Below, one piece after another: positions 5,175 to 42,166 of a DNA stretch of 64,000 bases. Made by a program: the position numbers and the translations under genes. The notes beneath the pieces were generated by a model. The model made no database searches and had not been told where the DNA came from. It saw only the letters and a list, made by a program, of their open reading frames with translations. The DNA comes from Candidatus Woesebacteria bacterium RBG_16_42_24 (lineage in GTDB: Bacteria > Patescibacteriota > Microgenomatia > UBA8517): positions 5,265 to 69,264 of the forward strand of contig MGFX01000007.1 of assembly GCA_001792115.1 (NCBI GenBank), in the 5' to 3' direction. The stretch's first letter is position 1. Every line of letters starts with the position of its first letter.

Positions 5175-5177
5175 AGC

Positions 5178-5843
5178 TTATTCTAGTTCGGTGGCAATTA
5201 GAAGGTCAAGGGAAGAAACGAGACTTTCTTTTGAAGTTTTTACGCTAACGTCTATCTCGGCTAACTTATTAATCAATCTGCTAAGTTTTTTTTGAGTAAA
5301 CTTTTCCGACTGACTCTCAAGTTTCAACATTCTCCATTCGGGGTAACCCAAGAAAACCCCGTCTATTTTAAGTAGGTATAGATCGCGAAGAAAGCGGGAA
5401 AGAAGATGCAGAATCAATTCTTCAGGTTGGCTACTTGCGATCTGGTGAAATAAATTCAATGCGTTTTTTACATTTCCTGGATAAAAAGAATCCAGAAATT
5501 TATAAATCAGATTGGGGAGCTTAAATTCTTCCAACGACGCGGTGTCCGGAAGAGCGCTTATTAGTGTTTTGGAGATAAACCCTGATTGAAAAAGTATTAT
5601 GTTTCCTTCCCTCCGCGAGAGCAACATCTCAAGTTCTTTTTTTTTCAATCTTCCGGCGTTATCGATTAACAAGACACTTTCTCCAAAAAGACCTCGATTA
5701 AGGGCTACGTCACTTATTGAGGAGGAAGCATCAAGTGAAATTTTCTGTATGTCGATACCTTTCTCTCGGGCTTGAGCAATTAAGACCGCAAGCCTCTTTC
5801 TTGAAGCAACTTCATTGTCGCCGTTTACGACAAAAACCTTCAT
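5178..5843 (-). CDS. holA: DNA polymerase III delta subunit-like (short HolA)
   Basis: 221 aa; N-terminal region with LFGESVLLI motif and helical C-terminal region resembling HolA. Shorter than the canonical protein. Confidence 0.45.
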   Translation of the reverse strand: MKVFVVNGDNEVASRKRLAVLIAQAREKGIDIQKISLDASSSISDVALNRGLFGESVLLIDNAGRLKKKELEMLLSRREGNIILFQSGFISKTLISALPDTASLEEFKLPNLIYKFLDSFYPGNVKNALNLFHQIASSQPEELILHLLSRFLRDLYLLKIDGVFLGYPEWRMLKLESQSEKFTQKKLSRLINKLAEIDVSVKTSKESLVSSLDLLIATELE

Positions 5844-24857: not shown

Positions 24858-24909
24858 AGTATGATTATACAGTGAGAATGTGGAATTTGGGTGGAGTTTA
24901 GCCTCTAAA

Positions 24910-25119
24910 GGGAGTAAAATGTGTCTTTAATTGTCCGCGCACGGGTTGGGCTTGCCCTAAAAATTGCGCATTCAATTTTCAGGGTGAAGGGCAAGGACAA
25001 TTTGTTCCTGTCTTAACGCGCGCAAAAAATAGCGGAGGCGAGGCTGTTAGGCCGAGCCGGAGCTGCGACAATTAGGGTGTGCGACAAAAGTTAGTTCGAG
25101 CTTTTTCAAAAACGAGCTC
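24910..25119. repeat. Intergenic repeat element, copy 1 (~210 bp)
   Basis: Near-identical blocks shared with 29666..29929: gggagt...cgcacggg, gaagggcaa.gacaatttgttcctgtcttaacgcgcgc, caaaaaat, agcggaggcgaggc, ggccgagccgg, ttcgaRctttttcaaaaacgagctc. Ends 5 nt before the GTG start of the 25125 gene. Confidence 0.7.
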
Positions 25120-25124
25120 CATAA

Positions 25125-25847
25125 GTGACAAAAATAAACATTAATGACAAAAAAGTTACAATAATGGATAATGGTTTTATGAATAAATACGTGGTGTTGC
25201 TTCGTAGTAACATATTTAAAATCACGACGCTTGTTTTGTTTCTGATTGTTCTTGTTGTCAGCTTTGTTAACATCAGCTTCCAGCAAAAACTTAAGGATAC
25301 AACCCAAAAATTGGCATTTAAAAGCGAGGAATATGAGCTGTGCATAGATGACAAAGCAAAAATAATAGAAGAATCTAAGCAAACTTATTCTCCTCAGGAA
25401 TTTAAGATTTCTTCTCCTTTGTTTGAAGGAAAAGAAATGACCGTAAAAATGTTGGGTTATAAAGGCACTGAGATAAAAGAGATGACAATTGATCTTCCGC
25501 AAAGTGATCAGCTGGGTCATCCGATTAATATTAAAGTCTGGGATTATATTAACGTTCCTAATCCAAAAATGGCAAGATTCGACCAGTATTACAATGCCTT
25601 TCCACTTTGGGCAGAAACAGTAAATGATAATCTGACAAATTATTTTACATATAAGACGACTAGTGGATTTTCTATGAATCGCGCTTGTGGAGAATTAACC
25701 ATTTCGAGAAGCATCACCAGCATTCACAGCATTTATGTATTGATATCAGGCTATCAATGTACTGGAATATTTCCAGGAAAAGAGGAAGAAACAATCAGGG
25801 AGTCAACAAAGTTTCTAGAGGAAGTAGCAGACACTATTAATTTTTAG
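25125..25847 (+). CDS. Hypothetical membrane-anchored protein
   Basis: 240 aa; TM helix at ~30-50 then a soluble domain without recognisable motifs. Very AT-rich. GTG start with no obvious RBS. The antisense ORFs in this region look like low-complexity artefacts. Confidence 0.4.
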   Translation: MTKININDKKVTIMDNGFMNKYVVLLRSNIFKITTLVLFLIVLVVSFVNISFQQKLKDTTQKLAFKSEEYELCIDDKAKIIEESKQTYSPQEFKISSPLFEGKEMTVKMLGYKGTEIKEMTIDLPQSDQLGHPINIKVWDYINVPNPKMARFDQYYNAFPLWAETVNDNLTNYFTYKTTSGFSMNRACGELTISRSITSIHSIYVLISGYQCTGIFPGKEEETIRESTKFLEEVADTINF

Positions 25848-25942
25848 CTTTACTCTAGCGTGGCAAAATCATCAACACCTAAGAGTTCTTTCAAGGCCAA
25901 AAGCTGAACACCCAACTCTGGTGTGATATACTTTGATAGGCT

Positions 25943-25966
25943 TGTCCTGAGTGAAATCGAAGGGTT
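25943..25966. repeat. Short repeat fragment (gtcctgagtgaaatcgaagggtt) related to motifs inside repeat copy 2
   Basis: Matches the inverted copy ccttcgatttcactcagga at 29794..29812 and the direct copy gtcctgagcgaagtcgagggg at ~29874..29894. Confidence 0.5.
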
Positions 25967-26022
25967 CGAGCCCAGTACGGTATCCAGCTCAAAACGTGAG
26001 TGTACGTGCGTAAACCAGGATT

Positions 26023-26793
26023 ATGCAGATAGATTTCTTCGAGGAGTTCCCCAACGATGATAGTTTATCTAAGTTGCGCATTATTAAATTTCGAACAAAT
26101 CTCTATGTCGCTGCTAAAAGTGTAAAAGAATTCTTAGTTTTAAAAACTAAAATTAAGAAGTTTTATAGAAATGTAGCCGAGGTAATTTACTGGCCTATTC
26201 TAGAGGTGAATGAAGGTTATTGGCTATCAGCATTCTCCAAAACATTGGCAATTAAGCGAATTCTAAACGAGCTTAAAAATACAAACGAGAAGTTCTCAGT
26301 ACTTTGGGATGCAGAACTGCCAATATTAGCTAAAGAACTTTTCGTGACTCAATTACCAAATTTCTTAAGAAATCGGAAAATTATAAAAAAAGTAACATTG
26401 CATCAAGACTCAAATCATCCTCTTATAATAACGGCATTTCCCAAAAGCGGAATAAATAAATTCTTCTCGAGTCTGGCGTGCACTTATTTTTCTTCTGGAA
26501 GTTTTCCCTATATCGATATGCTCTATACCTCTTTACTGAGGGTAAAAGATAAGTCTAGGTATGTACGTAGTGCCATAAAAAGAAATAAAAATAAATTTCA
26601 GGAATACTCTGTTGCACTTGGACTTATTGGGCGAGGGGTAGAAGATTACTCAACACCACTAATTTCTCCTCTTGGCTTAAAAATGGATTTAGGTATCGCA
26701 CAGAAAGAAGGGGTAAAAAATGTAGTACTTTATCGCCTAGGAGGCTTAAATAAAAATTATCTCGGAGTGCTTGAGGAATTTGTCAGTAAATAG
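26023..26793 (+). CDS. Hypothetical protein
   Basis: 256 aa, AT-rich, no recognisable motif. Confidence 0.4.
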   Translation: MQIDFFEEFPNDDSLSKLRIIKFRTNLYVAAKSVKEFLVLKTKIKKFYRNVAEVIYWPILEVNEGYWLSAFSKTLAIKRILNELKNTNEKFSVLWDAELPILAKELFVTQLPNFLRNRKIIKKVTLHQDSNHPLIITAFPKSGINKFFSSLACTYFSSGSFPYIDMLYTSLLRVKDKSRYVRSAIKRNKNKFQEYSVALGLIGRGVEDYSTPLISPLGLKMDLGIAQKEGVKNVVLYRLGGLNKNYLGVLEEFVSK

Positions 26794-26909
26794 CCCACAA
26801 AAAGTGTTAATTTATTAAGTTGTACTTTATTATGTATTTTTTAGTTCTAAAGCATAAACTAAATCAGGTAATAGGCCGTCTTGATAGAATAATCTGATAA
26901 AATCTAACT

Positions 26910-27386
26910 ATGATTAAAGATTTGAACAAACTAGCCAGGAAAATTATTCAGGAAAACCAATATGTAACAATTGCCACATCAGACAAAAATGGCAATCCTT
27001 GGATTTCTGCAGTGGTTTATGCATATGACAAAGACTGGAATTTTTATTTCATTTCAATCCCTTCATCTAAACACTGCCAGAACATAAAAAATAATAAAAG
27101 GGTTGTGGTTGCAATTTTCGATTCACATCAGCTTTTGGGTGAAGGAGTCGGTTTACAAATAGAGGGTGAAGCGATTATGGTGGATATTAAAGACACGCCT
27201 AAAGTAGCTACAATTTATTTTGGAAGAAAATACCCATATGGCAAGGTGGCGCATAATGCCGGTCAGTATATCAAAAGATTTATGAAGAAAGGAGAACTAT
27301 ACAGATTTTATAAAATTCGACAGACAACGTTTTGGATGAACGACCCAAATAGCAAAATTGATTTAAGAGTTGAAGTAAAATTATGA
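26910..27386 (+). CDS. Pyridoxamine 5'-phosphate oxidase-like FMN-binding split-barrel protein
   Basis: YVTIATSDKNGNPWISAVVY...NKRVVVAIFDSHQ pattern typical of the PNPOx/general-stress-protein-26 family. Paralogous to the 28102..28578 product. Confidence 0.55.
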   Translation: MIKDLNKLARKIIQENQYVTIATSDKNGNPWISAVVYAYDKDWNFYFISIPSSKHCQNIKNNKRVVVAIFDSHQLLGEGVGLQIEGEAIMVDIKDTPKVATIYFGRKYPYGKVAHNAGQYIKRFMKKGELYRFYKIRQTTFWMNDPNSKIDLRVEVKL

Positions 27387-28105
27387 ATATGGATTTTCAG
27401 AATAAAGTAGCAGTTATCACAGGAGCAAGTAGAGGACTTGGCAAAGAAATTGCGATACTTTTGGCTGAGCAAAAAGCCAAACTTGCACTGGTTTCCCGAT
27501 CAGAAAATGAGCTAAATAAAGTCAAAGAAGAAATTGGCCCCAATGCGGAATATTTTGTCTGCGATATTTCAAACTCAAAAGCAGTTGAGAAAACCATCGT
27601 TGAGATTCATCAAAAGTTCGGCAAAATAGACATTCTCATCAATAATGCCGGTATTTGGTTTGAGGGGCTAGCAGAAAAACACCCTCCAGAAAAGGTTAAA
27701 GAATTATTCGACGTAATCACGTTGGGAACTATTTATGTAACAACAAGCGTGCTACCAATTCTCAAAAAACAGGCTGAAGGGCAAATATTAAATGTCGTTT
27801 CTGTCGCAGGGATAGAAACTCCCGGAGCTGAAATGGGTCCTTACTCGCCGTATACTGCCGCAAAATATGCTGTAACCGGGTTCACGAAATCATTAGAGGA
27901 AGAACTCAAAGGGACAAAAATAAAAGTAATGGGAATTTATCCAGGCGGAATGAATACACCTCTATTCAAGAAAGCTGGTTTTGATTATACAGAAAACGAA
28001 AATTGGATGATGGATAAGAAAGATGTCGCCAAAATTATTTTATTCATGCTCTCACAACCAAAAGACGTAATTATTGACCACTTAGTTGTAAGAAAATTTA
28101 GTTAA
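27383..28105 (+). CDS. Short-chain dehydrogenase/reductase (SDR)
   Basis: TGASRGLG cofactor-binding motif, NNAG, and a YxxxK active-site region (YTAAKYAV). Confidence 0.8.
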   Translation: MNMDFQNKVAVITGASRGLGKEIAILLAEQKAKLALVSRSENELNKVKEEIGPNAEYFVCDISNSKAVEKTIVEIHQKFGKIDILINNAGIWFEGLAEKHPPEKVKELFDVITLGTIYVTTSVLPILKKQAEGQILNVVSVAGIETPGAEMGPYSPYTAAKYAVTGFTKSLEEELKGTKIKVMGIYPGGMNTPLFKKAGFDYTENENWMMDKKDVAKIILFMLSQPKDVIIDHLVVRKFS

Positions 28106-28578
28106 GCCTTCCAAATTCCGTATTCTTCAGGTGAATAAAGTTCTTTGTTGAAAAACTTTAAATACTTTGGGGTAATCTTCCAAACGTTAGTGTCAGCAAA
28201 TTTTATAACCTCCTTTATCGTTATCTCCTTTTCTACTCCAGGGTTTTGCTTATGCCAAAGTGCTAATGCCTTAGTTAGATTGATAATTCCTTTAACCTTC
28301 TCGATTGTGCCGGATCCTTGGAGCCCCTTCTTGGGTTCAAAAATCTTTTGGTGAGAATCGAAAATATTAAATGCGATTTTGTTGTTCTTAGTCATATCTT
28401 TGCCGTGAATTGAGTTCGGGTCGGTAACAATGTACAGATTCATATCTTTGTCAATTCCATAATAAACAGTGCAAACCCAAGGGCCTTTTGAGGATTGAGT
28501 AGCCAACGTCATGATTCCCTTCTTTTTAAGAAACTTGAAAATATCTTGCCCGATTAGAACGTTTGTTCTTTTACCCAT
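28102..28578 (-). CDS. Pyridoxamine 5'-phosphate oxidase-like FMN-binding protein (paralog of the 26910..27386 gene)
   Basis: IMTLATQSSKGPWVCTVYYGIDKDMNLYIVTDPNSIHGKDMTKNNKIAFNIFDSHQ aligns with the 26910 product. Start placed at the internal Met to avoid a 90-nt overlap with the pyrD-like gene. Confidence 0.5.
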   Translation of the reverse strand: MGKRTNVLIGQDIFKFLKKKGIMTLATQSSKGPWVCTVYYGIDKDMNLYIVTDPNSIHGKDMTKNNKIAFNIFDSHQKIFEPKKGLQGSGTIEKVKGIINLTKALALWHKQNPGVEKEITIKEVIKFADTNVWKITPKYLKFFNKELYSPEEYGIWKA

Positions 28579-28599
28579 CAAGGCTATAATATCACTGGA

Positions 28600-29664
28600 G
28601 TGAATAAATTCAAAATTGAACACTGGGTCTATAAAAATATTCTCAGGCCATATTTGTTTGCTATTGATTCCGAAAAAATCCACGACCAAATGATTAGGTT
28701 TGGGGAACTCACGGAAAATGCAGGCTGGTTTTTAGAAGCCCAATACTCATATAAAAGCGATAGGTTAAAAAGGTCGTTTTTAGATGTAGATTTTGAGAAT
28801 CCAGTGGGGCTTGCTGCCGGGTTTGACTACGATGGACATTTAGCCAAAACAATGAAACATCTCGGGTTTGGATTTAATACCATTGGCACAGTTACGGCTA
28901 AGCCTTACGGAGGTAACCAGAAGCCTAGGTTGCTAAGACTTGTGAAGTCTCGAGCGATTCTTGTAAACAAAGGCTTCAAGTCAGAAGGTGCGACCAAAGT
29001 GGCAAAAAGGCTAGACGCAAAAAATCTTCAAGGACACACTGTCGGAATCAGTGTCGGAAGCTCAAACATTCCAGAAGTGAACACAATTGACAAAGCGATC
29101 AATGACTATGTCTTTACTTTCAATGTTTTTAAAAACAAGCCTTACGTTAAATATTTTGAACTTAATATCAGTTGTCCTAACACAGCGATGACTGAGTCAT
29201 TTACTACACCACAAAATTTTGAAAAGTTGGTATCCGCCGTAAGTAAGCTGAATTTGAAGCAACCAATCTTTGTGAAAATGCCAAACGAAATAGTCAGTAA
29301 AGAAGCAGAAAGCTTAGTAAGAATTGGTTTGAGGTATAGAATAAATGGCTATATTTTCTCTAACCTTGTTAAGGATCGGGGAAATAAATACTTTGTAAAA
29401 AGCGAGATCGAAAAGATGGAAGGCTACAAAGGTAATTTTAGCGGGAAACCCTGCACGGAGAACTCTAACAAACTTCTGGCGCATGTTAAGACAAAGTTCG
29501 GTAATAAGGTTGTCCTGATTGGCCTTGGCGGAATTTTCAATGCGAAAGACGCAATCCAGATGTTTGAAAGTGGGGCCGATTTAGTACAACTTATAACAGG
29601 AATGATTTTTGAAGGACCTCAAATAGCAGGAGAGATAAATTATCAACTTTCTATTGGTAAGTAG
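28600..29664 (+). CDS. pyrD: Dihydroorotate dehydrogenase-like, class 2 (quinone-type) architecture
   Basis: N-terminal extension YKNILRPYLFAIDSEKIHD, ENPVGLAAGFDYDG, GFGFNTIGTVTAKPYGGNQKPRL, NISCPNT, and C-terminal LGGIFNAKDA...GADLVQLITGMIFEGPQI all match class-2 PyrD blocks. Confidence 0.7.
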   Translation: MNKFKIEHWVYKNILRPYLFAIDSEKIHDQMIRFGELTENAGWFLEAQYSYKSDRLKRSFLDVDFENPVGLAAGFDYDGHLAKTMKHLGFGFNTIGTVTAKPYGGNQKPRLLRLVKSRAILVNKGFKSEGATKVAKRLDAKNLQGHTVGISVGSSNIPEVNTIDKAINDYVFTFNVFKNKPYVKYFELNISCPNTAMTESFTTPQNFEKLVSAVSKLNLKQPIFVKMPNEIVSKEAESLVRIGLRYRINGYIFSNLVKDRGNKYFVKSEIEKMEGYKGNFSGKPCTENSNKLLAHVKTKFGNKVVLIGLGGIFNAKDAIQMFESGADLVQLITGMIFEGPQIAGEINYQLSIGK

Positions 29665-29958: not shown

Positions 29959-30678
29959 ATGAAGTTTAAGCTTGTTGATAAGAAGGCAGAGGCGAAGGGG
30001 ACGAAGTCTTTCTTTTGGGAACCTGACAAAAGGTTTGAATTCTTACCCGGACAGTATCTTTATTACACTCTTCCAAAGCTTGAGTTTCCGGATCCAAGAG
30101 GCGCTACGCGGCACTTTACTATTTCAGCCTCACCTACGGAATCTCCCCCCGTCAGGTTGACTACTAGGATTCGTGAGGAGTCTGGTTACAAAAAAACTTT
30201 AGATTCGCTACCAATTGGCAGTTTTGTTGAAGCAGAAGGCCCTGACGGAACTTTTATTTTAGATACTGGCGATGCGGGACCCCATATCTTTATTGCGGGA
30301 GGAATCGGCATTACTCCTTTCAGAAGCATGATTAAGTTTGTCCTTGACAAAAATCTGGGTTACGAGATGCATTTAATTTATTCAAACTCTCTTCCCGAGG
30401 AAATTGCTTTTAGAGAAGAGTTTGACCATTACGCTGACCTTATTCCCAATTTTAAGATTACCTCAACTGTGACTAAGAAAGACGAAATAAAAACGCCCTG
30501 GGTTGGACTGACCGGGAGAATTGATGTCAACTTAATTTCGAAGGTTGCAAGCTCTTACCAAAATCCCACATTTTGGGTTTGCGGTCCACCTCCGATGGTC
30601 GATGCGATAGAGAAAGCTCTTTCCGAGCTCAAAATCTCTTCGAGCCAAATAAGGACAGAAAAATTCACGGGTTATTAG
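29959..30678 (+). CDS. FAD/NAD(P)-binding ferredoxin-NADP reductase-like oxidoreductase
   Basis: RHFTIS (RxYS flavin motif), GGIGITPF, and a C-terminal VCGPPPM NAD-binding motif. No Cys cluster for a 2Fe-2S centre. Confidence 0.7.
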   Translation: MKFKLVDKKAEAKGTKSFFWEPDKRFEFLPGQYLYYTLPKLEFPDPRGATRHFTISASPTESPPVRLTTRIREESGYKKTLDSLPIGSFVEAEGPDGTFILDTGDAGPHIFIAGGIGITPFRSMIKFVLDKNLGYEMHLIYSNSLPEEIAFREEFDHYADLIPNFKITSTVTKKDEIKTPWVGLTGRIDVNLISKVASSYQNPTFWVCGPPPMVDAIEKALSELKISSSQIRTEKFTGY

Positions 30679-33491: not shown

Positions 33492-34718
33492 TTATTTAAC
33501 TTCCTCCAAAGACTTTCTTAGGGCGTAAATAGCAGCGGGAATTGCGACAATTGCCCCAATTAGAGCCGAAATTCCGGCTCCGACAATGCCGTAGGCTCTT
33601 ACCAAAGGTAAAATACTGACTCCCAAGCCTAATATTCCAACGAAGGTTATTAGTGTGACATATTTCTGTTTACCTAAGGATAAAAGCACTGCAAAAACAG
33701 TATTTGATATTGCCTTAATTACACCAAAAATCGCCAAAACTTTTAGCACGGAAGCTGCTTCTAACCAGTTAGAACCCAGAGTCACATTAATTATTTCGCG
33801 CGGAAAAAGAAAAAGTAAAGCTCCAAATGGAATTACTAAAAGACAAACCCCCCCCAGTGTCTTAAAAAATGCCTGGGTCAATCTTTTTTTCTCCCCTGAG
33901 ATTTTTACATAGACTGGGAATGTGACCTTCCCAACTACGTCTGAAACTTCGGTTATGGGAAGGGTCGAGATTCTATAGGCAACCTGATAAATTCCCAAAG
34001 GGTAAGTCCCCAAAATTCGACCTACAACGATATCGTCACCGTGTTGAAAGAAATAATTGAAAATTCCGGCACCTGTCAACCACTTACCCCTATTGACTAT
34101 CTCTTGCAATTTTTCCTTCTCAAAAGTAACTCTGGGCCTGGGTTTAACAATGATATACGATAGGATTACTTCAAGAATGGCTCCGGCGATTAAACCATAG
34201 ATTATACTCGCCGCGGAATGTGTTATAAGAGCGGCTGATACGGCAACCAGAGTATCGAAAATAAATATCGATAGTCTAAAAGTAAATTCCCTTTTGAACT
34301 TAAGTTCCTTGACAAGCTTAACCACCGAAGGGTTAATAAATCCCCGAATAATCGGAACAACCGCCATTAAGTATAGAAGCCGGTAAGCATCGGGAGACTT
34401 AAAGAACACAACTATTACGGGTGAGGCTAACAAAATAACTATCGAAATAAGAAAACCCCGGGCAATAGAAAAAATCCAGGCTGTGTTGATATAGGTATCC
34501 ATGTTTTTCTTCTCCTGCATTAGAACCACATTTACACCCGTTTCTGTTAAAATCTCAAGAAGTTCTAAAACTAAAGAAGCTATTCCAAAGAGTCCGAATT
34601 GAGCAGGAATAAGAACTCTCGCAAGAATCGCTGTCTTAGCAAAGGCAATTGCTCGCGAGATGGCCTTGAGTCCACCAAGCCAGGAAACCCCTTTTACAAT
34701 GTCTCTTAAATACCCCAT
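33492..34718 (-). CDS. Polysaccharide flippase (Wzx/MOP superfamily)
   Basis: ~12 TM helices; N-terminal LGGLKAISRAIAFAKTAILARVLIPAQFGLFG is typical of Wzx-like polysaccharide biosynthesis proteins. Its start overlaps the upstream stop as TAATG. Confidence 0.7.
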   Translation of the reverse strand: MGYLRDIVKGVSWLGGLKAISRAIAFAKTAILARVLIPAQFGLFGIASLVLELLEILTETGVNVVLMQEKKNMDTYINTAWIFSIARGFLISIVILLASPVIVVFFKSPDAYRLLYLMAVVPIIRGFINPSVVKLVKELKFKREFTFRLSIFIFDTLVAVSAALITHSAASIIYGLIAGAILEVILSYIIVKPRPRVTFEKEKLQEIVNRGKWLTGAGIFNYFFQHGDDIVVGRILGTYPLGIYQVAYRISTLPITEVSDVVGKVTFPVYVKISGEKKRLTQAFFKTLGGVCLLVIPFGALLFLFPREIINVTLGSNWLEAASVLKVLAIFGVIKAISNTVFAVLLSLGKQKYVTLITFVGILGLGVSILPLVRAYGIVGAGISALIGAIVAIPAAIYALRKSLEEVK

Positions 34719-35668
34719 TATTTTCCTATTATACCTTTCAAAAACCCTGCCATTACGGCAAAATCCGATGAAATTTGAATCACCGGTCCCCAAATACTAA
34801 TCTCCCAATCTTTAAATTCTAAATTGACCTTCTTATAAGCCCACAGAAGGTAAAGTATGACAAGTATCAAAAGTATGACGGGGAGTGAAGGGTTTGCAAA
34901 AGATAAAATTAATATTAAACAACCAAATATATATCGCCCGAAGATTGAAAGAACATGGATATTGTGCGACGAAAGCTTTTGGGTTGGGTGCCACCAATTT
35001 CCGTATCGGGCGTCCCATCTGGCATAATCCTCCATAGTTTTTAACCCCTCCCTTAAAGTCCCCGGTGTCCCCCACTCCACTATCGCATCTTTCACGCGTG
35101 AATACTTTAGCCCCAGCTTAATTGCCTTTGTGTTGAATTCCGAATCTTCAGCCGAATTCTCCTCCCTTTCCGGGAATCCCCCAACAGTCTCCCAAGCTTC
35201 TTTTCTAAAAGCCATCGACCTTGCCGTGGGTAGAAAATCTTTGTCGAATTTTGAGGCAGGAAATCCAAGAAAGCAGCCTAAAGCTTTTTGCATAGGGCTC
35301 TCCCCTATCATCTCGTATAATCCAGCAACAATATCTACGTCTGGGTCGTTAAAAGGTGCTGTAATCTTTTCCAACCAATCCTTTTTAGCAATACAACCAG
35401 CGTCGGTCATAGCTATTATCTCGCTATCGGCAATTTCAACGGCCAAATTTCTGCCTCTTGCCCTTAAACAATTCTCAAGGAGAAGCTTAATTCTCCCATC
35501 TTTCTTTTGATAATGTTTCAGAATCTCAATAGTTTTATCCCTAGATCCCCCGTCAACCACCACTATTTCTTCTGTTCTTTTAGTTTGTCCTAGTAACGAA
35601 TCCAGAAGTGGACTTATTATTTTCTCTGCGTTTAAGACGGTTAAGCAAATTGACACCTTCATTGCCAA
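34718..35668 (-). CDS. Family 2 glycosyltransferase with C-terminal membrane anchor
   Basis: VSICLTVLNAEKII...VVVDGGSRDKT...AMTDAG GT2-A motifs and a hydrophobic C-terminus. Confidence 0.75.
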   Translation of the reverse strand: MAMKVSICLTVLNAEKIISPLLDSLLGQTKRTEEIVVVDGGSRDKTIEILKHYQKKDGRIKLLLENCLRARGRNLAVEIADSEIIAMTDAGCIAKKDWLEKITAPFNDPDVDIVAGLYEMIGESPMQKALGCFLGFPASKFDKDFLPTARSMAFRKEAWETVGGFPEREENSAEDSEFNTKAIKLGLKYSRVKDAIVEWGTPGTLREGLKTMEDYARWDARYGNWWHPTQKLSSHNIHVLSIFGRYIFGCLILILSFANPSLPVILLILVILYLLWAYKKVNLEFKDWEISIWGPVIQISSDFAVMAGFLKGIIGK

Positions 35669-35739
35669 ATTATAACAATCTTTTAGGGCGGGGAGAACGT
35701 CATTGCACTTTTACGGCAGTCTAACTAAACTGAATTTAT

Positions 35740-36330
35740 ATGGCACAAACCCCCAAAGAGAAGGACCCTCCGATTGTCGATGTTAAGGTAAGAAACCCAA
35801 TAACCTACATCAAAAAGTGGTGGAAAAAGGTCATTGAGAATGAAGGAATATTTTTCAGTTTCCGGGTGCGTCCCCTCACGGCCATTGCGGTCGCTTTGGT
35901 TGTCACAAGCTTAACACTTGGGCTAGGTAAATTTGTATTGCCATTTACTATCCCATTTTTCCAATATAACCCCGAACCGGCTACGCCTCTCGTTCCTACC
36001 CCTGAGGTTTGGAAAGAAACCGCCTATACAGGGACTTTACGCTATTCGGAAGCAACAGGTAAATACTATTTGGTGACGACCGCATCTGAAGCAATCACCC
36101 TTCAAGTACCAGAAAACATAAAGCTTTCCCCTTATGTCGGAAGAAGAATTTTTGCAACTGGAAAGTATTACAAGGCAACACGTACATTAGTGGTAGCCAG
36201 CGCTAACGACACAGAACTTTTACCGTCAGCCTCCAACCCTATTCCTACAACATCTCCTACCCCGTCGCCATCTCCCACTCCCACTTTTGAGCCGGCCTCA
36301 GGTACCGACACAATCACACCGTCTCTTTAG
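35740..36330 (+). CDS. Hypothetical membrane-anchored protein with Pro/Thr/Ser-rich C-terminus
   Basis: TM helix at ~45-65; C-terminal PTTSPTPSPSPTPTFEP low-complexity tail. Confidence 0.4.
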   Translation: MAQTPKEKDPPIVDVKVRNPITYIKKWWKKVIENEGIFFSFRVRPLTAIAVALVVTSLTLGLGKFVLPFTIPFFQYNPEPATPLVPTPEVWKETAYTGTLRYSEATGKYYLVTTASEAITLQVPENIKLSPYVGRRIFATGKYYKATRTLVVASANDTELLPSASNPIPTTSPTPSPSPTPTFEPASGTDTITPSL

Positions 36331-36333
36331 CTC

Positions 36334-36990
36334 CTAAACGTATTCTTTCTTGGGAAGAAAATATTTTCTATAAAGTCGTCTTAAAATTGTCAAGCCTACT
36401 ATTAAAACAGCAAACCAATAAAACCACGAAAAGGGGGGCGTCCAGGCATCTGTTCCAGTGAAATAGGCGTGGACTGCGACGAAAAGGAATGCAACATAAT
36501 TGAGGATGTGCAAACTCCTCCACTTTTCTCTAAAAAAGGGTTTTGTTCGAAAATAACCAGCGGCAACTCCGACAGTAAGAAGTAAAAAAGCGAATCTGCC
36601 AAAGCTTATCCAAAGCTCTCTTCCTGTCAGTGACATCGGGAAAATTGTAAATAAAGGATTAAAAATGCCCAAATTAAAGTAGTTGAAAAGTGTATAGAGC
36701 ATTGGGTGGATAAGAATTAATCCGTATATAAAAAGCCCTTGGGTCGTATGAAACTTAAAGACCCAACCCCCTAATTTTTCTGTTAATAAAGTCATATATG
36801 AGCCCAGTATTATTTGCCAAAACAAGAGTATAAATGCGGCTAATCCCGTTAGTCTTTGGAAAAAGTTGGTAATTAAAGTTGGGTTATCGATGGAACCGGG
36901 AGGGGTAAGACTAAGGATTGTCAAAGGGGCAATTAGAAGTGTCACAAACCAGAGAAACAAAAAGAGGGGCTTTCCAACACCGATACTCAT
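36334..36990 (-). CDS. Ferric-reductase-like / YedZ(MsrQ)-like haem-binding membrane protein (tentative)
   Basis: ~6 TM helices with paired conserved His residues in TM helices (HTTQG...LILIHP and HILNY...FVAVHAY), the pattern of bis-haem ferric reductase domains. Confidence 0.35.
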   Translation of the reverse strand: MSIGVGKPLFLFLWFVTLLIAPLTILSLTPPGSIDNPTLITNFFQRLTGLAAFILLFWQIILGSYMTLLTEKLGGWVFKFHTTQGLFIYGLILIHPMLYTLFNYFNLGIFNPLFTIFPMSLTGRELWISFGRFAFLLLTVGVAAGYFRTKPFFREKWRSLHILNYVAFLFVAVHAYFTGTDAWTPPFSWFYWFAVLIVGLTILRRLYRKYFLPKKEYV

Positions 36991-37297
36991 CTATAAAAGT
37001 ATATCAAAAAAACTACTTGACTTTCAAAAGTGTCTTGTTAAGCTAAATGAGGTGTCATATCCTGAAAACCGGGCAGGCCAAGCCGGACAAATAGGCCGAA
37101 GTATAGGAGTTATTGAACCAGATCACCCTTCTTTTAAAGTTGATACCCCATTACAAACTGGAAGACCCGAGTGGATGGACAATAAAGTTTTAGCGGTTAA
37201 AGACGGAAAGACTATCGAAATTCCCATCGGTGTTTGGCTCAGAGATAATATTTCTCCTCATGCCCGCGGCACCTAAAAAAGTGCTATCATCTTGTAA

Positions 37298-37861
37298 ATG
37301 TTAGAGTATTTCGGGTTAAAAATCTGTGGTCTAACTCGCAAACTTCCCCTAATCCCCATTTCCAAGAACACCAAAATTGCTAGCTTTAACATTTTGGGGG
37401 ATGCAGAGCTGACCGAAAAAGTGGCTACTGAACTTTCAAAAAGACTAAAAAAATATAAATTTGATTATCTCGTGGGACCCGAAGTAAAGGTGGTTCCACT
37501 TATTCATGAACTGGCAACTAAATTAAGACACAAAAAATATGTAATATGCAGAAAGAGCGTCAAACCTTATATGGCCTCCCCAACTATTCTCAAGCCTCTT
37601 TCCCACTTCCCCAAACACGTAAGGCCCCTTGTTATTGACGGGGCTGATAAAGAAATGCTCTCTGGAAAAAAAGTTGTAATTGTAGACGATGTGGTCTCAA
37701 CCGGAGTAACGATAAGAATGATTAAATACCTGATGGATAAAATTGGAGCAAAGGTTGTGGCAACTGTTGCAATCATAAGGCAGGGAGAAAAACAATTTGA
37801 CGAAATTGAGAATTTTATTTACTTGGCCGAACTTCCAATTTTCAAAGAGACCACAATATAG
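37298..37861 (+). CDS. Type I phosphoribosyltransferase (purine/pyrimidine salvage PRTase)
   Basis: PRPP-binding motif KVVIVDDVVSTGVTI. Confidence 0.7.
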   Translation: MLEYFGLKICGLTRKLPLIPISKNTKIASFNILGDAELTEKVATELSKRLKKYKFDYLVGPEVKVVPLIHELATKLRHKKYVICRKSVKPYMASPTILKPLSHFPKHVRPLVIDGADKEMLSGKKVVIVDDVVSTGVTIRMIKYLMDKIGAKVVATVAIIRQGEKQFDEIENFIYLAELPIFKETTI

Positions 37862-37989
37862 GACATTTCTTCTTCTTGACAGGGGTAAGGGCAATTGCTA
37901 AGGTTAATATGTTTTCACAACAGCGCAATATCTCAGATTAAGCCGGAGAAAAATATAAGAAACAGGGCTTAAAAAAGGTACCCGGACTG

Positions 37990-39111
37990 TTGTGTTCGGG
38001 TTTTTTAGTTTTAATGAGTGTAGAATTTCGAGTTACCTCCGATTTTCGGGAACTTGCCGAAATAGCAGAAGCTAGAAACGCCTCTCCAGAATGGCGCGGA
38101 GTTTTAGAAATTAAGCCTTCAGTAAATAGAGTCTTCCGTCTTCGTGGAAGACCTCCCAATAAGGGTGATATAAACGACATCTACTACGACTTGGTAGATT
38201 TTTCCCAAATAACGATATCTTTTAATGAGCTTGCTCGGCGACTTTCACAAATGGCAGAGTTAGAAGGTACTTATTACCCTCTAGCCGAAAATTTCGCCCT
38301 TCGTGTCGCTCGAGATACAGGTCGTTACGAAAGAATCCCGGATTTTATAGATGCAGGCAAAGACCTGGTTGCTCACGCCGTCTGGTACTTATGGAGACCG
38401 GAAAGAGGGGAAGATTTTACAACCCTAAACAGTATAAATAAAGCTCAACTAAACAGGGCCCTAAAATCTTTTTGGTACCGCTCAAATTTCCACCAATCCT
38501 TCTCGGGCGTGGCAATCCATGAACTGCATACGGCCAAGCCTTTGGATGAAAATGACGCGACTGCCGTACGATCAAAGCCTAGAACAAGACTCAAGCAAGC
38601 CACTCTACATCTTTCTCTGCCCTCTGTTATCGCAACTGTTGATGAATGTGACCCGATCGAAAAGATAGCCTCCCTTGCCGTAATGGGATATTACCCCGAC
38701 GGGAGAGGGCTCATGGGAGTAGCCAAACAAATTAGGGTGGATCGAATCAAGTTGGGATACGCCTTAAACCGAGCGATTGAAAAACTTATACAGACTCGAA
38801 ACGGAGCAACTCCCGAAAGGTCAATTAGAGAAATTGTTGACGAGCTCCTACGAGACGGAAAATACCGCTACGCCTCCGGAGCAGCAGTGGTAAGAAACTC
38901 TCCGAGATACTTACTTCTAAGAATGAGGAAGTTACCCCAAGGACTATCTGAACCAGAAAGGAAAATCGTGGAATTAGCACTCATGAGAAACGGCAATACG
39001 CTCTTGTACTCTAACAATGAGGAAATAGGACAACAACTCGGAGTAGACAAGAATATGATTTTCAACGTAATCCGAAACGTCACGAGTAGTCTTCAGCAGG
39101 ATACACTTTAG
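37990..39111 (+). CDS. Hypothetical regulator with sigma-70 region-4-like C-terminal HTH
   Basis: The C-terminus (LSEPERKIVELALMRNGNTLLYSNNEEIGQQLGVDKNMIFNVIRNV) fits the sigma-70 region-4 / LuxR-type HTH pattern. N-terminal ~300 aa unrecognised. The real start may be the ATG at 38014 (MSVEFRV). Confidence 0.4.
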   Translation: MCSGFLVLMSVEFRVTSDFRELAEIAEARNASPEWRGVLEIKPSVNRVFRLRGRPPNKGDINDIYYDLVDFSQITISFNELARRLSQMAELEGTYYPLAENFALRVARDTGRYERIPDFIDAGKDLVAHAVWYLWRPERGEDFTTLNSINKAQLNRALKSFWYRSNFHQSFSGVAIHELHTAKPLDENDATAVRSKPRTRLKQATLHLSLPSVIATVDECDPIEKIASLAVMGYYPDGRGLMGVAKQIRVDRIKLGYALNRAIEKLIQTRNGATPERSIREIVDELLRDGKYRYASGAAVVRNSPRYLLLRMRKLPQGLSEPERKIVELALMRNGNTLLYSNNEEIGQQLGVDKNMIFNVIRNVTSSLQQDTL

Positions 39112-39242
39112 GAAAAACCTTGAGACTATCCTGCTGCAGTCTACCTTTTCTAGGTCCCGAAGGTAGAAAATCCTAGCAGCAAAAAGGAGGATTGCCCTTT
39201 TACAAATAGGGACCGCTTACACTCAAACTGGAGGAAGCAACA

Positions 39243-40259
39243 ATGTCTCGCAAATGGAGGGTCCTGTTCGTGCTGGGAATCCTGGCGGTACTTACTGCCG
39301 GATGCGGAGCCTCTGCTCAACCGCAAGCCCAGCCGCCTGTGCAGGTGGAGGTTATCGTTGTCTACCCTACTCCGATGCCTACCCAGATTCCTGCACCAAC
39401 AGCCGTACCGTTGAAGCTCGATGACACCCCTCGTATCGCCCTGATTTCTGCCTTTGACGGCGAACTCTACGCTTTCAGGGACGAGGGCAACATCGAGGAA
39501 ACCCTAGTCGTCGACGGCCGAACCGTGTACATGGGAACGCTTGCTGGGCACGACGTTCTCATGACGATCAGTGGGGTTTCGATGGTCAACGCAACGCAGG
39601 CGGTGACCACGCTGATCGAGCGGTTCAACATCACACACATCGTGTTTTCGGGTATAGCGGGCGGCGTCAACCCGGATCTTCGAATCGGCGACGTGGCTGT
39701 GCCTGCGAGGTGGGCTGAGTACCAAGAGAACTACTTCGCCCGAGAGACGTCCGGCGGCTTCGCTCCCCCGCCCTGGGTCACGCCGATAGCACCCAACTTC
39801 GGGATGATGTTTCCCAGCTGTCCCGATGTCGTTCTGCCAGGGTCTCCGCCCGACCTCGAGACTACGATGTGCTGGTGGAACGCCGACCCAACCATGCTCC
39901 AAGTCGCCCAACAGGTGGCCACCAGCATCGAGCTCGAACGGTGTGTCGATGCAGACCACTGTCTCAGTGAAACGCCGGTCGTCAGGGTCGGTGGAAACGG
40001 CGTAGCCGGGCCCACTTTCGTGGACAATGCGGAATACCGAAGCTATGTCTGGGACGTCTGGCGGGCTGACTCCCTGGACATGGAAAGCTCAGCCGTTGCC
40101 CACGTGGCTACCGACAAGCATGTTCCGTTCATCATCTTCCGGAGCCTCTCCGATCTTGCCGGAGGCGGCCCAGGAGAGAACGAGATCGGGACATTCTTCG
40201 GCATCGCGGCCACCAACAGCGCCAGGGTCATGCTCGCCTTCCTGGAAGCCTGGCCGTAA
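39243..40259 (+). CDS. Lipoprotein of the PNP/UDP phosphorylase family-1 (MTA/SAH nucleosidase-like), strongly GC-rich
   Basis: Lipobox LTAGC after a signal peptide; GHDVLMTISG, FSGIAGGV and DMESSAVAHVA match family-1 nucleoside phosphorylase/nucleosidase motifs. GGAGG RBS 7 nt upstream. 60-nt spot counts give ~63% GC, against ~35-45% for neighbouring genes. Confidence 0.65.
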   Translation: MSRKWRVLFVLGILAVLTAGCGASAQPQAQPPVQVEVIVVYPTPMPTQIPAPTAVPLKLDDTPRIALISAFDGELYAFRDEGNIEETLVVDGRTVYMGTLAGHDVLMTISGVSMVNATQAVTTLIERFNITHIVFSGIAGGVNPDLRIGDVAVPARWAEYQENYFARETSGGFAPPPWVTPIAPNFGMMFPSCPDVVLPGSPPDLETTMCWWNADPTMLQVAQQVATSIELERCVDADHCLSETPVVRVGGNGVAGPTFVDNAEYRSYVWDVWRADSLDMESSAVAHVATDKHVPFIIFRSLSDLAGGGPGENEIGTFFGIAATNSARVMLAFLEAWP

Positions 40260-40346
40260 GCACCGTACGGGGAAAGAAATTTAAGTCCCCAAAGGGGGGG
40301 TCGAAGTGGACAATCGTCCATCAGGCCCCCTCTGGTACTTTAAAAG

Positions 40347-40418
40347 TGGTCGCTGCAGGGATCGAACCTGCGACCTCTTCGATGTGAACGAAGCGCTCTA
40401 CCACTGAGCCAAGCGACC
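40347..40418 (-). tRNA. tRNA-Val (anticodon CAC)
   Basis: Minus strand: acceptor GGTCGCT/AGCGACC, anticodon stem CTTCG/CGAAG with loop TTCACAT, T-arm GCAGG-TTCGATC-CCTGC. Confidence 0.85.
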
Positions 40419-40500
40419 AATATGCATATTTTACCACGCCAGTGGGCCATTCTCATTTAACCCCTTGTAACTTAAGTTTGGACACGAATATAATTAATTC

Positions 40501-41067
40501 ATGTTTCTAAAACGTCTGGGAGCTTTTTTTTTGGACTTTTTGGAGGTAATTGTTTTTGCCGTAGCAATATTTCTTTTCTTTTATCTTCTGATCTTGCAAC
40601 CCCATAGAATTGACGGCAACTCCATGCAACCCAATTACCCAGACAACGAACTACTTTTGACCGACAAAGTAAGCTACAGATTCAATGAACCCCAGCGAGG
40701 TGATGTGATTGTTTTTGAAGCTACAGCACCAACCGATAAAGGAAAAGAATTCATTAAAAGAATAATGGGTTTACCCGGGGAGAGGATTATGGTAAAAGAC
40801 GGCCTTTTTTGGGTAAATGGAAAGGTAGTGAGAGAGGATTATTTAGCTTCCGGCACCCAAACCTTTTCAGGAGTTTTCCTTAAAGATGGGGAGGAAAAGG
40901 AAGTTCCAAGCGGAGAATACTTTGTCATGGGAGATAATCGTGGCTCCTCGTCCGATTCAAGAGCCTGGGGATTTGTTCCCAAGGAGGCTATTACCGGAAA
41001 GAGCTGGTTCATCTATTGGCCACCTAAAAACTTGGGAATAGTTGCAAAAGTTGAATATTCTATCTAA
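40501..41067 (+). CDS. lepB: Signal peptidase I
   Basis: TM helix, catalytic Ser box (DGNSMQPNY), RIMGLPGERI and GDNRGSSSDSR boxes. Confidence 0.85.
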   Translation: MFLKRLGAFFLDFLEVIVFAVAIFLFFYLLILQPHRIDGNSMQPNYPDNELLLTDKVSYRFNEPQRGDVIVFEATAPTDKGKEFIKRIMGLPGERIMVKDGLFWVNGKVVREDYLASGTQTFSGVFLKDGEEKEVPSGEYFVMGDNRGSSSDSRAWGFVPKEAITGKSWFIYWPPKNLGIVAKVEYSI

Positions 41068-41070
41068 AAG

Positions 41071-41919
41071 TTAAATCGAGGTAATGGCTCTATGAACTTT
41101 TTGAAGCCTTTCCTCTGTTTCCTCCAAACCACCCTTAAATACGATACTGATTTTTGTTTCGCGCCTTGAGCGAACTAATTTAACGGTTGATTTCCTAATA
41201 TCTTCGGAAATTCCGTCGTTCAATTTCTTTTGCATCTCCTCCTGCATTTTGTCTAGCTCCTCCGAGACTACCCTTAACTGGTCTTGTCTAACCCCAACCG
41301 TTTTTGTCGACTGTTGAGACTTTGCTTTCATTCTCCTCGCTAATTCCTCAGCCCGCCTCACAGACCCACTTTCCCGCAAAATTATCTTATAAGCCTCAAG
41401 CATAAGCCCCTGGTCATCCACGGCCGCCAGGGCTCTTGCGTGACCCTCCGATATTAAACCAGAAAGAAGACCATCCTTCAGGGCGTCTGGCAAAGAAAGA
41501 AGCCTTATTGAGTTTGAAACGTAAGCAACGCTCTTTCCGATTCTTACTGCAATCTCGCTCGTTGTGAGACCAAACTCATGAATTAATCTTTCGAATCCCT
41601 TCGCCCGATCGAGTGGATTAAGGTCAATCCTCTGAACGTTTTCAACTAGTGCCATCTCAAGCATCCCCTTGGGCGATGTTTCCCTTATTAGTGCTGGGAC
41701 AAACGGTAATCCCGCCAACTTCGAAGCGCGCCATCTTCTCTCCCCCGCAATTATTTGATATCCGGCTGGTGTCTTAGCAACAACCAGGGGCTCAAGTATT
41801 CCGTGTTCTTTAATAGAATCAACTAGATCTACCAGGGATTCTGGAGTAATTGCACCACGCGGCTGGAGAGGATTTGGTTGGAGCTCGTTTACGTCTATCT
41901 GAACTACTTCTTCTGCCAT
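41071..41919 (-). CDS. parB: ParB/Spo0J chromosome partitioning protein
   Basis: ParB box GILEPLVVAKTPAGYQIIAGERRWRASKLAGL, followed by an HTH. Confidence 0.85.
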   Translation of the reverse strand: MAEEVVQIDVNELQPNPLQPRGAITPESLVDLVDSIKEHGILEPLVVAKTPAGYQIIAGERRWRASKLAGLPFVPALIRETSPKGMLEMALVENVQRIDLNPLDRAKGFERLIHEFGLTTSEIAVRIGKSVAYVSNSIRLLSLPDALKDGLLSGLISEGHARALAAVDDQGLMLEAYKIILRESGSVRRAEELARRMKAKSQQSTKTVGVRQDQLRVVSEELDKMQEEMQKKLNDGISEDIRKSTVKLVRSRRETKISIVFKGGLEETEERLQKVHRAITSI

Positions 41920-41920
41920 A

Positions 41921-42166
41921 TTATGTTATTGAAATTATGCCTTTCCCATATTTTTGGCTCATTTTCACTTTCCCAACCCGCACCGAATAAATCGTGTGGT
42001 CTCGACCTTTTTTGGCACCGGTACCTGCATGAAATTTAGTACCTCTTTGTCTAATCAATATTTCTCCCGCTCCAACACTTTCTCCATTTGACACTTTCAT
42101 TCCAAGCCTTTTTCCAGCTGGGGAAACGTGTTGAGATGCTTTACCGCCTTGTTTATGCGTAGACAT
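41921..42166 (-). CDS. rpmA: 50S ribosomal protein L27
   Basis: Start MSTHKQGGKAS..., then RLGMKVSNGESVGAGEILIRQRGTKFHAG...GKDHTIYS, the L27 core. Start moved to the internal ATG. Confidence 0.8.
   Translation of the reverse strand: MSTHKQGGKASQHVSPAGKRLGMKVSNGESVGAGEILIRQRGTKFHAGTGAKKGRDHTIYSVRVGKVKMSQKYGKGIISIT

Follow-up and report, generated by a model that had tools for sequence, protein, structure and literature searches.

The gene considered here lies at 39243..40259 on the forward strand of a 64-kb stretch of DNA (the whole of which is called the window) from Candidatus Woesebacteria bacterium RBG_16_42_24, a member of the candidate phyla radiation (CPR), and encodes a 338-aa exported nucleosidase, NUC, resembling the 5′-methylthioadenosine/S-adenosylhomocysteine (MTA/SAH) nucleosidases, or MTANs. 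NUC is probably carried by a short cassette that reached the lineage horizontally, from outside, has been exchanged among Woesebacteria and stands within a purine-salvage neighbourhood. The cassette, consisting of a leader, NUC, a 3′ stem-loop and tRNA-Val, appears to fill the spacer between tRNA-Val and the gene for HYP, a clade-specific protein of ~365 aa with helix-turn-helix-like features. It would have entered the clade from a GC-rich source, probably Chloroflexota-like, and the entry is likely to be old, because the four-fold sites have become randomised with respect to all the outside homologs sampled. Later passage between Woesebacteria lineages would most likely have involved the uptake of DNA followed by homologous replacement at the conserved flanks, and the cassette seems to have been lost or broken in some lineages. 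Loci of homologs and relatives are designated below by the letter L and a number.

Composition of the nucleosidase gene

A first-pass annotation had singled out the gene as a compositional outlier of ~63% GC, and its outlier status is borne out by computation although the figure was slightly high. The open reading frame (ORF) has a GC content of 60.5%, with 62.5, 47.5 and 71.4% at the first, second and third codon positions (GC1, GC2 and GC3), and 100-nt windows within it vary between 57 and 65% GC. The 58 remaining window ORFs of at least 100 aa have a mean GC of 41.2% (sd 3.2) and a mean GC3 of 38.5% (sd 3.7), placing NUC at z = 6.1 for GC and 8.9 for GC3; the highest GC3 among the 58 is 46%. 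Recoding the same protein with the codon usage of the window gives an expected GC3 of 0.417 ± 0.025 against the observed 0.715 (z = 11.7), and hence the anomaly is one of codon choice and not of amino-acid content alone. The amino-acid usage is also of the high-GC type, with Lys accounting for 0.9% of NUC versus 8.3% across the window. The rise in GC begins at the start codon and stops at the 3′ hairpin ahead of the tRNA, with an abrupt step at both borders of the ORF. The gene has its own ribosome-binding site, GGAGG at 39229-39233 on the forward strand, 9 nt before the ATG, which is kept in the orthologous leaders; this site and the LTAGC lipoprotein signal ending at Cys21 had both been read correctly at the first pass.

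Conservation of the locus and exchange of the cassette

An identical NUC protein, flanked left and right by the same genes, is present on 12 contigs from at least seven assemblies, among them four of ENA, two of Logan (separate runs) and a second NCBI genome, the protein being recorded under Candidatus Woesebacteria bacterium RBG_19FT_COMBO_42_9. In a search of 5.8 billion proteins, the next in rank come at 80% identity, followed by others at 67% at most. Every close relative that can be placed in context (L009, L090, L092, L093, L099, L100 and L110) occupies the same Woesebacteria locus, in which the shared order is adenine phosphoribosyltransferase (APRT), HYP, NUC, tRNA-Val, S26 peptidase, ParB, L27, L21, FtsW and IleRS. 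L094 retains only the block of phosphoribosyltransferase (PRTase), HYP and NUC, and L165 retains PRTase, leader and NUC. At least 10 diverged contigs of the Woesebacteria clade carry the cassette in the same slot and always in GC-rich form, with a NUC GC3 of 0.62-0.76 in all syntenic copies versus 0.26-0.57 in the flanking genes. The depth of divergence between the lineages is evident from ParB (79-88% identical), L27 (58-63%) and FtsW (60-65%), and from flank pS values of 0.63-0.90, mostly at least 0.73, among the carriers. In L108 (2886-3430) and L155 (5990-6471) NUC is without ~aa 159-247 and has a frame change, so that these copies are probably pseudogenes.

The strongest sign of lateral exchange comes from the comparison of L110 (1-2827) with the window (37894-40706). 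Nucleotide identity is 50-75% in HYP, rises to 90-100% over ~39128-40478 and is ~70% in the S26 gene, the alignment being near-identical from CTGCTGCAGTCTACC onward. At the protein level the two are 95% identical in NUC, 62% in HYP and 72% in S26, and their tRNA-Val genes are 100% identical, whereas the tRNA-Val of the window is 73-88% identical to those of other clade members. Such a sharply bounded block of identity indicates that a discrete unit, tRNA-Val included, was recently exchanged laterally among lineages. The exchanged unit of ~1.35 kb (39128..40478, no strand assigned) contains the leader, the NUC ORF, the 3′ hairpin, the whole of tRNA-Val and ~60 nt past the tRNA 5′ end. Its left edge coincides with the 3′ arm (from ~39128 onward) of a hairpin, I3, which spans the HYP stop codon at 39086..39144 on the forward strand and is formed by an inverted repeat with 27-nt arms, 78% complementary, around a 5-nt loop. 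Trees tell of a similar conflict: NUC groups the window with L009 at 100% support, whereas both flanks group the window with L093 at 85-100%.

The tRNA-Val(CAC) gene was located by ARAGORN at 40346-40418 on the reverse strand (71 bits with Rfam), with its 3′ end facing NUC. The adjacency of the two genes noted at the first pass is correct, although the spacer from the NUC stop measures 86 nt and not 88. tRNA-Val also adjoins NUC in L090, L092 and L093; in L099 the contig runs out within the tRNA, of whose 3′ end just the first bases can be seen. In L009, the relative at 81% identity, a tRNA-Val(CAC) at 67-142, 73% identical to that of the window, is found upstream of APRT instead of beside NUC. 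The tRNA-Val of L090 resembles that of L009 in its anticodon stem and the tRNA-Val of L096 resembles that of the window, which means that the tRNA-Val variants do not follow the phylogeny of the flanks. L096 provides an empty site, in which (5084-5202) the HYP stop is followed by 44 nt and then by the 3′ end of tRNA-Val, with no NUC; flanking-gene trees place this locus as sister to the cassette-bearing L090 (68-100% bootstrap).

The tRNA gene had been regarded at the first pass as a classic integration hotspot. The position at its 3′ flank and the empty site in L096 agree with this idea; the integrase and the att or tRNA repeat that would go with it do not appear. No integrase or recombinase is encoded in or beside the insert, where the neighbours are APRT, HYP, S26 peptidase, ParB, L27, L21 and FtsW. 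The partial copy of the tRNA-Val 3′ end that had been suggested for the far side was sought in vain, as the 23-nt 3′ segment of the tRNA matches only itself at up to three mismatches, and the search for att-like direct repeats gave none, nor any repeat longer than chance would produce. At 37234-37247 a 14-nt inverted match to the D-arm of the tRNA was discarded, with no Rfam match and no tRNA remnant there. The cassette thus resembles the tRNA-linked integrase islands in its tRNA 3′-flank position, its foreign composition and the existence of an empty site in a relative, but differs from them in being only ~1.3 kb long, with one cargo gene, no integrase and no att repeats. Given this lack of an integrase and of tRNA or att repeats, homologous replacement via conserved flanks would be the most economical mechanism, and the inclusion of the whole tRNA and a further ~60 nt within the exchanged block also fits it better than site-specific integration.

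Origin and age

Outside the syntenic Woesebacteria group no protein among the 5.8 billion is more than 65% identical to NUC. With regard to donor taxa, which were judged from the best 80 genome hits, a high-GC actinobacterial donor had been suggested at the outset; no Actinobacteria occur among these hits and the suggestion is not upheld. In a neighbour-joining (NJ) tree the Woesebacteria copies fall instead in a clade of 99% bootstrap with a group whose members include the Chloroflexia metagenome-assembled genome (MAG) L010 and a contig of 65% GC, L095. At four-fold sites the Woesebacteria copies share no more than chance identity with these sister-group genes, and the deeper pairs among the copies themselves are near chance. 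In non-CPR genomes NUC has the composition of its neighbours, and this includes low-GC genomes in which its GC3 is 0.37-0.41, so that GC-rich codons are not intrinsic to the NUC family. The foreign origin proposed at the first pass is retained, although not as a recent event private to this genome, since at least 10 diverged Woesebacteria carry the cassette in the same slot.

Fold, catalytic residues and predicted export of NUC

NUC matches Pfam PNP_UDP_1 (E = 1.9e-36), and its best PDB sequence matches are MTA/SAH nucleosidases, over two stretches (aa 64-159 and 238-335). When an AlphaFold model (24 homologs, pLDDT 80.7) is superposed on MTANs, the target-normalised TM-score is ~0.83. Glu12 and Asp197 (E. 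coli numbering) are important for catalysis in MTANs, and mutant structures, 1z5n and 1z5o, are listed among the PDB entries. Residues Glu74, Met280-Glu281, Arg300 and Ser303-Asp304 of NUC align with E. coli Glu12, Met173-Glu174, Arg193 and Ser196-Asp197, and the catalytic-site residues are invariant across the 24 aligned homologs. The description given at the first pass, of a family-1 nucleoside phosphorylase/MTA-SAH nucleosidase-like enzyme, is sound. NUC also scores 23.8 bits with Pfam PF06516, ‘purine nucleoside permease (NUP)’, below the cutoff of 27 and over aa 63-155 only; many close homologs carry precomputed NUP matches.

The protein begins MSRKWRVLFVLGILAVLTAGC and has, on the forward strand, three parts. 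A signal peptide and lipobox (aa 1-21, 39243-39305) with a hydrophobic helix at aa 3-19 is followed by a Pro-rich linker, read from the sequence (aa 22-62, 39306-39428), and then by the catalytic domain (aa 63-338, 39429-40256), within which lies a family-specific insertion at ~aa 160-237, bearing a pair of invariant cysteines. Bacterial lipoboxes follow the rule [LVI][ASTVI][GAS]C after a hydrophobic region, in PROSITE-type notation. The lipobox L-T-A-G-C21, with Cys21 at 39303-39305, fits this pattern, and the Cys is kept in most copies of the clade, L092 being without it. N-terminal export signals are found in 24 of the 24 aligned homologs. Cys234 and Cys240 are invariant in the 24 homologs, which in an exported protein suggests a disulfide; the window and L009 copies contain further Cys residues, including positions 203 and 210. 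Judged from its sequence, NUC is an exported MTAN-like nucleosidase and not an MtnN equivalog.

A probable purine-salvage neighbourhood

The gene at 37298..37861 on the forward strand encodes a 187-aa PRTase of the adenine phosphoribosyltransferase type and is of native composition, with a GC3 of 0.38. It belongs to Pfam PF00156, reaches 191.8 bits with NCBIfam NF005592 (‘adenine phosphoribosyltransferase’; cutoff 143) and matches the PDB APRTs 5zgo and 6fsp at E = 1e-36. An APRT of the NF005592 type is encoded directly upstream of NUC homologs in L016 and L026, two unrelated Patescibacteria contexts, and in L045 a PRTase 43% identical to that of the window (by tblastn only) again directly precedes a NUC homolog. 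A second recurrent association is with the Bmp/PnrA lipoproteins (PF02608), which are linked to NUC by fusion in L026 or by adjacency in L017, L025 and L045, but are not part of the cassette of the window. In L026, the Woesebacteria chromosome CP066693.1, a 690-aa ORF (2893-4965) contains a NUC homolog fused to a Bmp/PnrA-like nucleoside-binding domain; the fusion is closely preceded by an APRT gene, with tRNA-Glu and the gene for a 563-aa resolvase-domain protein further upstream. L017 and L025, which are Chloroflexota loci, have two adjacent genes instead, NUC being followed by one that is 54% identical to the Bmp domain of L026. At the empty site of L096, an IMPDH-family gene of native composition lies between tRNA-Val and the S26 gene.

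The pathway envisaged from these observations begins with the export of NUC and its anchoring to lipid via the Cys21 of the lipobox, the Pro-rich linker of ~40 aa probably keeping the enzyme clear of the membrane. The MTAN-fold domain, to judge from its fold and conserved catalytic residues, would act outside the cell by hydrolysing the N-glycosidic bond in adenine nucleosides, with adenosine, MTA, SAH and 5′-deoxyadenosine as candidate substrates. The adenine released would be imported and then converted into AMP by the APRT encoded 1.4 kb upstream, whose family membership is clear and whose coupling to NUC is suggested by the recurrent neighbourhood and the domain fusion. Taken together, the gene context and the Bmp/PnrA fusion support, by comparison of sequences and by analogy with Borrelia Bgp, a putative role in extracellular adenine salvage. 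The first-pass view that NUC suits extracellular nucleoside scavenging fits the APRT context, although its premise of an organism that cannot make nucleotides needs qualification. A dihydroorotate dehydrogenase is encoded at 28600-29664 (PF01180, E = 1.5e-53), meaning that at least one step of de novo pyrimidine synthesis is present, and is followed at 29959-30678 by an FAD/NAD-binding oxidoreductase with the look of a PyrK-type partner.

The closest parallel is found in Borrelia burgdorferi, an extreme purine auxotroph whose exported MTANs, Bgp and MtnN, have been put forward as its source of adenine in transportable form (PMC7557402). Bgp (BB0588) and MtnN (BBI06) likewise have the MTAN fold and signal peptides and are located on or near the surface, and the logic of an exported nucleosidase combined with intracellular salvage is the same. 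NUC, which is ~20-27% identical to solved MTANs, differs from the Borrelia proteins in its ~80-aa insertion, its Pro-rich tether, the invariant Cys234 and Cys240 and the Ile in place of Ser76, as well as in the linked APRT, the carriage on a mobile cassette and the lack of any implied GAG-binding role. With the cytoplasmic MtnN/Pfs of E. coli (1jys; EC 3.2.2.9) NUC has in common the fold and the residues Glu12, Glu174, Asp197, Arg193 and Met173, but is below the family cutoffs, is exported, and has a replaced specificity loop and the Ser76 to Ile change. A periplasmic MTA/SAH nucleosidase is also known from Aeromonas hydrophila (PDB 5b7g; Xu et al. 2017, as cited in PMC6302742). It is 20% identical to NUC, is without both the insertion and the lipobox-linker architecture, and belongs to a proteobacterium that makes its own purines.

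Points against the acquired cassette and competing explanations

A number of observations weigh against the interpretation of NUC as an acquired and exchanged salvage gene. The monophyly of the Woesebacteria copies has a support of only 60% in the NJ tree, in which the placement of L094, L016 and L026 is unsettled, so that the direction and the number of entries into the CPR are not proven, and the taxonomic label of the sister group comes from the title of one MAG only. Neither a recombinase nor an att site nor any further mobility gene turned up, and the mechanism of transfer is thus inferred only. A single old transfer followed by neutral amelioration does not explain the persistently high GC3. 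As to function, no adenine transporter was identified, and NUC falls below every NCBIfam MTAN equivalog cutoff (115.5 versus 169 for PRK05584, 71.7 versus 73.8 for TIGR01704 and far lower for the others). Moreover, the position of E. coli Ser76 is occupied by Ile138, which is invariant in the family, and the loop that forms the 5′-alkylthio pocket of MTANs is replaced by the ~80-aa insertion (aa ~160-237, 39720-39953), which does not align to MTANs and was modelled at a pLDDT of 57-74.

The persistence of GC-rich third positions lends some weight to a different history, in which NUC would be an old resident gene, inherited mostly vertically, with its third positions maintained either by selection at synonymous sites, acting on mRNA stability or structure or on the kinetics of translation or secretion, or by GC-biased conversion at a recombination hot spot; their composition would then say nothing of a recent foreign origin. 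In all copies of NUC the GC content at four-fold sites (GC4) is 0.58-0.83, with no correlation with the host flanks (0.35-0.59). When F81-type resampling is carried out under the host equilibrium, 11 of the 15 copy pairs need an ancestral GC4 above 1, as do 8 of the 15 at the upper 95% bound. The third-position base frequencies are nearly identical across six lineages, and the GC-rich stretch coincides with the ORF and the hairpin. Furthermore, a search for recent mosaicism with the sampled GC-rich homologs yielded no patch of 85% identity or more over 40 nt, no high-identity patch is common to NUC and any sampled outside homolog, and recombination at the locus is demonstrated. All of this is in keeping with maintenance in place. 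However, low-GC genomes outside the CPR carry versions with a GC3 of 0.37-0.41, the ribosomal-protein genes L27 and L21 of the window are not rich in GC3, and the exchange of the cassette between the window lineage and L110 breaks the assumption that each low-GC host has long harboured the gene. Parsimony polarisation of four-fold sites on the window and L009 branches gives 20 strong-to-weak against 3 weak-to-strong changes, small and saturation-biased counts that are weakly informative and no more than hint at an AT-ward drift. On balance, long residence is considered unlikely, though it is the most serious of the competitors. For the persistent GC3 there are two candidate explanations, namely a GC-rich reservoir, itself unsampled, that would re-seed the low-GC lineages, a scenario that agrees with the demonstrated exchange, or the upholding of GC-rich synonymous sites by selection or biased conversion.

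A second alternative concerns function and not history, namely that NUC is exported for a purpose other than purine salvage, such as the removal of MTA or SAH outside the cell, as interference with signals or as detoxification, or the cleavage of another N-ribosyl substrate of a futalosine-like or cytokinin type. The missed equivalog cutoffs, the replacement of the pocket loop and the Ile at the Ser76 position would suit such a role, and a signalling role is suggested for the periplasmic MTAN of Aeromonas where it is mentioned in PMC6302742. Against this, an APRT gene is adjacent in four contexts (the window, L016, L026 and L045), Bmp/PnrA is a fusion partner or neighbour, and L096 has its IMPDH-family gene between tRNA-Val and the S26 gene, so that a non-salvage role appears distinctly improbable.

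It is very hard to sustain the idea that this genome alone acquired the gene recently, from a high-GC donor of actinobacterial type, by integration of a tRNA-targeting island. The strong compositional signal, the position at the tRNA-Val 3′ end and the empty site in a relative all speak for it, but the cassette is shared by at least 10 diverged lineages, its closest relative outside the syntenic group is ~65% identical, its four-fold sites are at chance identity with those of the sister-group loci L010 and L095, and neither an integrase or att repeat nor Actinobacteria in the top 80 genome hits were found. Finally, an assembly chimera or contamination, in which GC-rich DNA of a different organism had been joined to a CPR contig, was raised at the first pass and would account for the abrupt GC step at the ORF borders, but is effectively eliminated by the identical junctions in four ENA assemblies, two Logan runs and a second NCBI genome, by the syntenic orthologs in other metagenomes and by the specificity of the leader for the clade.

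The leader RNA and the 3′ stem-loop

A conserved 5′ leader (39153-39214, forward strand) is present upstream of every clade copy of NUC, with its counterparts at 2065-2127 in L009, 5919-5976 in L090, 5907-5966 in L092, 4819-4880 in L093, 361-422 in L099, 274-330 in L100 and 1265-1334 in L110. A 6-bp closing helix, GGTCCC/GGGACC, encloses ~50 nt that include TAGAAAA and a perfect Shine–Dalgarno (SD)-like motif, AAAGGAGG. The helix also occurs as GATCCC/GGGATC, GGTCTC/GAGACC, GGCCCC/GGGGCC and GGGCCC/GGGCCC, with 100% of the pairs kept through compensatory changes from U-A to C-G or G-C and from G-C to A-U, and the observed covariation score was reached by 6 of 500 shuffles. RNAalifold on MAFFT alignments missed this helix, as the 3′ arm was mis-registered, and realignment with a covariance model recovered it. 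The leader falls into two sequence subtypes. The covariance model, R1, finds the leader only in the clade cassettes, with none in 81 other homolog loci or in the rest of the window. There is no Rfam match to the leader, a search of 34000-42000 at E ≤ 1 giving only the tRNA and two chance matches. Its single-sequence fold is not unusually stable (z = -1.2), and the registers of the inner helix, P2/P3, are ambiguous. An interpretation of the internal SD-like motif in terms of a leader peptide (TTG-CCC-TTT-TAC-AAA-TAG) was rejected, the frame not being conserved in L009. The leader is a candidate for a new cis-regulatory RNA, on the evidence of comparative sequence analysis.

At the 3′ end of the cassette, minimum free-energy (MFE) folds reveal a nested GC-rich stem-loop (40293-40333, forward strand). 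The outer stem, GGAGGGGG/CCCCCTCC, is conserved in structure at orthologous positions, and MFE folds of seven orthologous 3′ regions give the same GGAGGGGGyC...GGCCCCCTCC stem around a variable inner hairpin. In the 46-nt spacer between HYP and the tRNA in L096, inspected by eye and unfolded, no such stem is apparent. A terminator scan reported no canonical terminator. On neither strand does the stem-loop qualify as a canonical intrinsic terminator, because the tract that follows is A-rich and not U-rich.

Neighbouring genes

HYP is encoded at 37990..39111 on the forward strand and is of native composition. It has no Pfam or NCBIfam match above threshold, though weak helix-turn-helix signals are present, with weak matches to HTH_6, HTH_10 and Sigma70_r4 over five orthologs. 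The family numbers 19 members among the 5.8 billion proteins and travels with the PRTase and not with NUC, as the PRTase-HYP pair occurs without NUC in L096 and L097. In L097 groES/EL comes after APRT-HYP, and in L098, where the pair is also present, the contig ends at HYP. In L099 HYP is reduced to a remnant of ~46 aa that joins the N- and C-termini. Elsewhere in the window, the region 24000-29000 is AT-rich (GC 0.34-0.38 versus 0.42) and encodes a PEP-utilizer-domain protein, two proteins without a family match, a PNPOx-like protein and a short-chain dehydrogenase; near 23-24 kb both the orientation of the genes and the GC skew reverse.

Significance

The theme of the exported MTAN is already known, and it is the behaviour of the cassette, the leader RNA and the persistent GC3 that are noteworthy. 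In literature searches neither this CPR cassette nor a comparable case of maintained GC was found to have been described before. It can be suggested, as a tentative proposal and with the greater weight of doubt still against it, that the unit of leader, NUC, hairpin and tRNA-Val represents an undescribed kind of recombinase-free mobile CPR cassette, which spreads across deeply diverged lineages, keeps its GC-rich coding against the mutation pressure of the host through synonymous selection or GC-biased conversion, and is under the control of a novel structured RNA in its leader, which might be a riboswitch responsive to purines or nucleosides.

CPR bacteria are thought to scavenge building blocks from their neighbours, although the extracellular steps of this process are poorly defined. 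The locus provides a concrete two-enzyme route, in which exported NUC would free adenine and APRT would make AMP from it, analogous to what has been proposed for Borrelia, and this route would travel on a cassette passed laterally between CPR lineages. The locus also offers a clean natural case for the study of amelioration, with the same 1-kb gene in at least 10 low-GC genomes retaining a GC3 of ~0.7 at saturated synonymous divergence.

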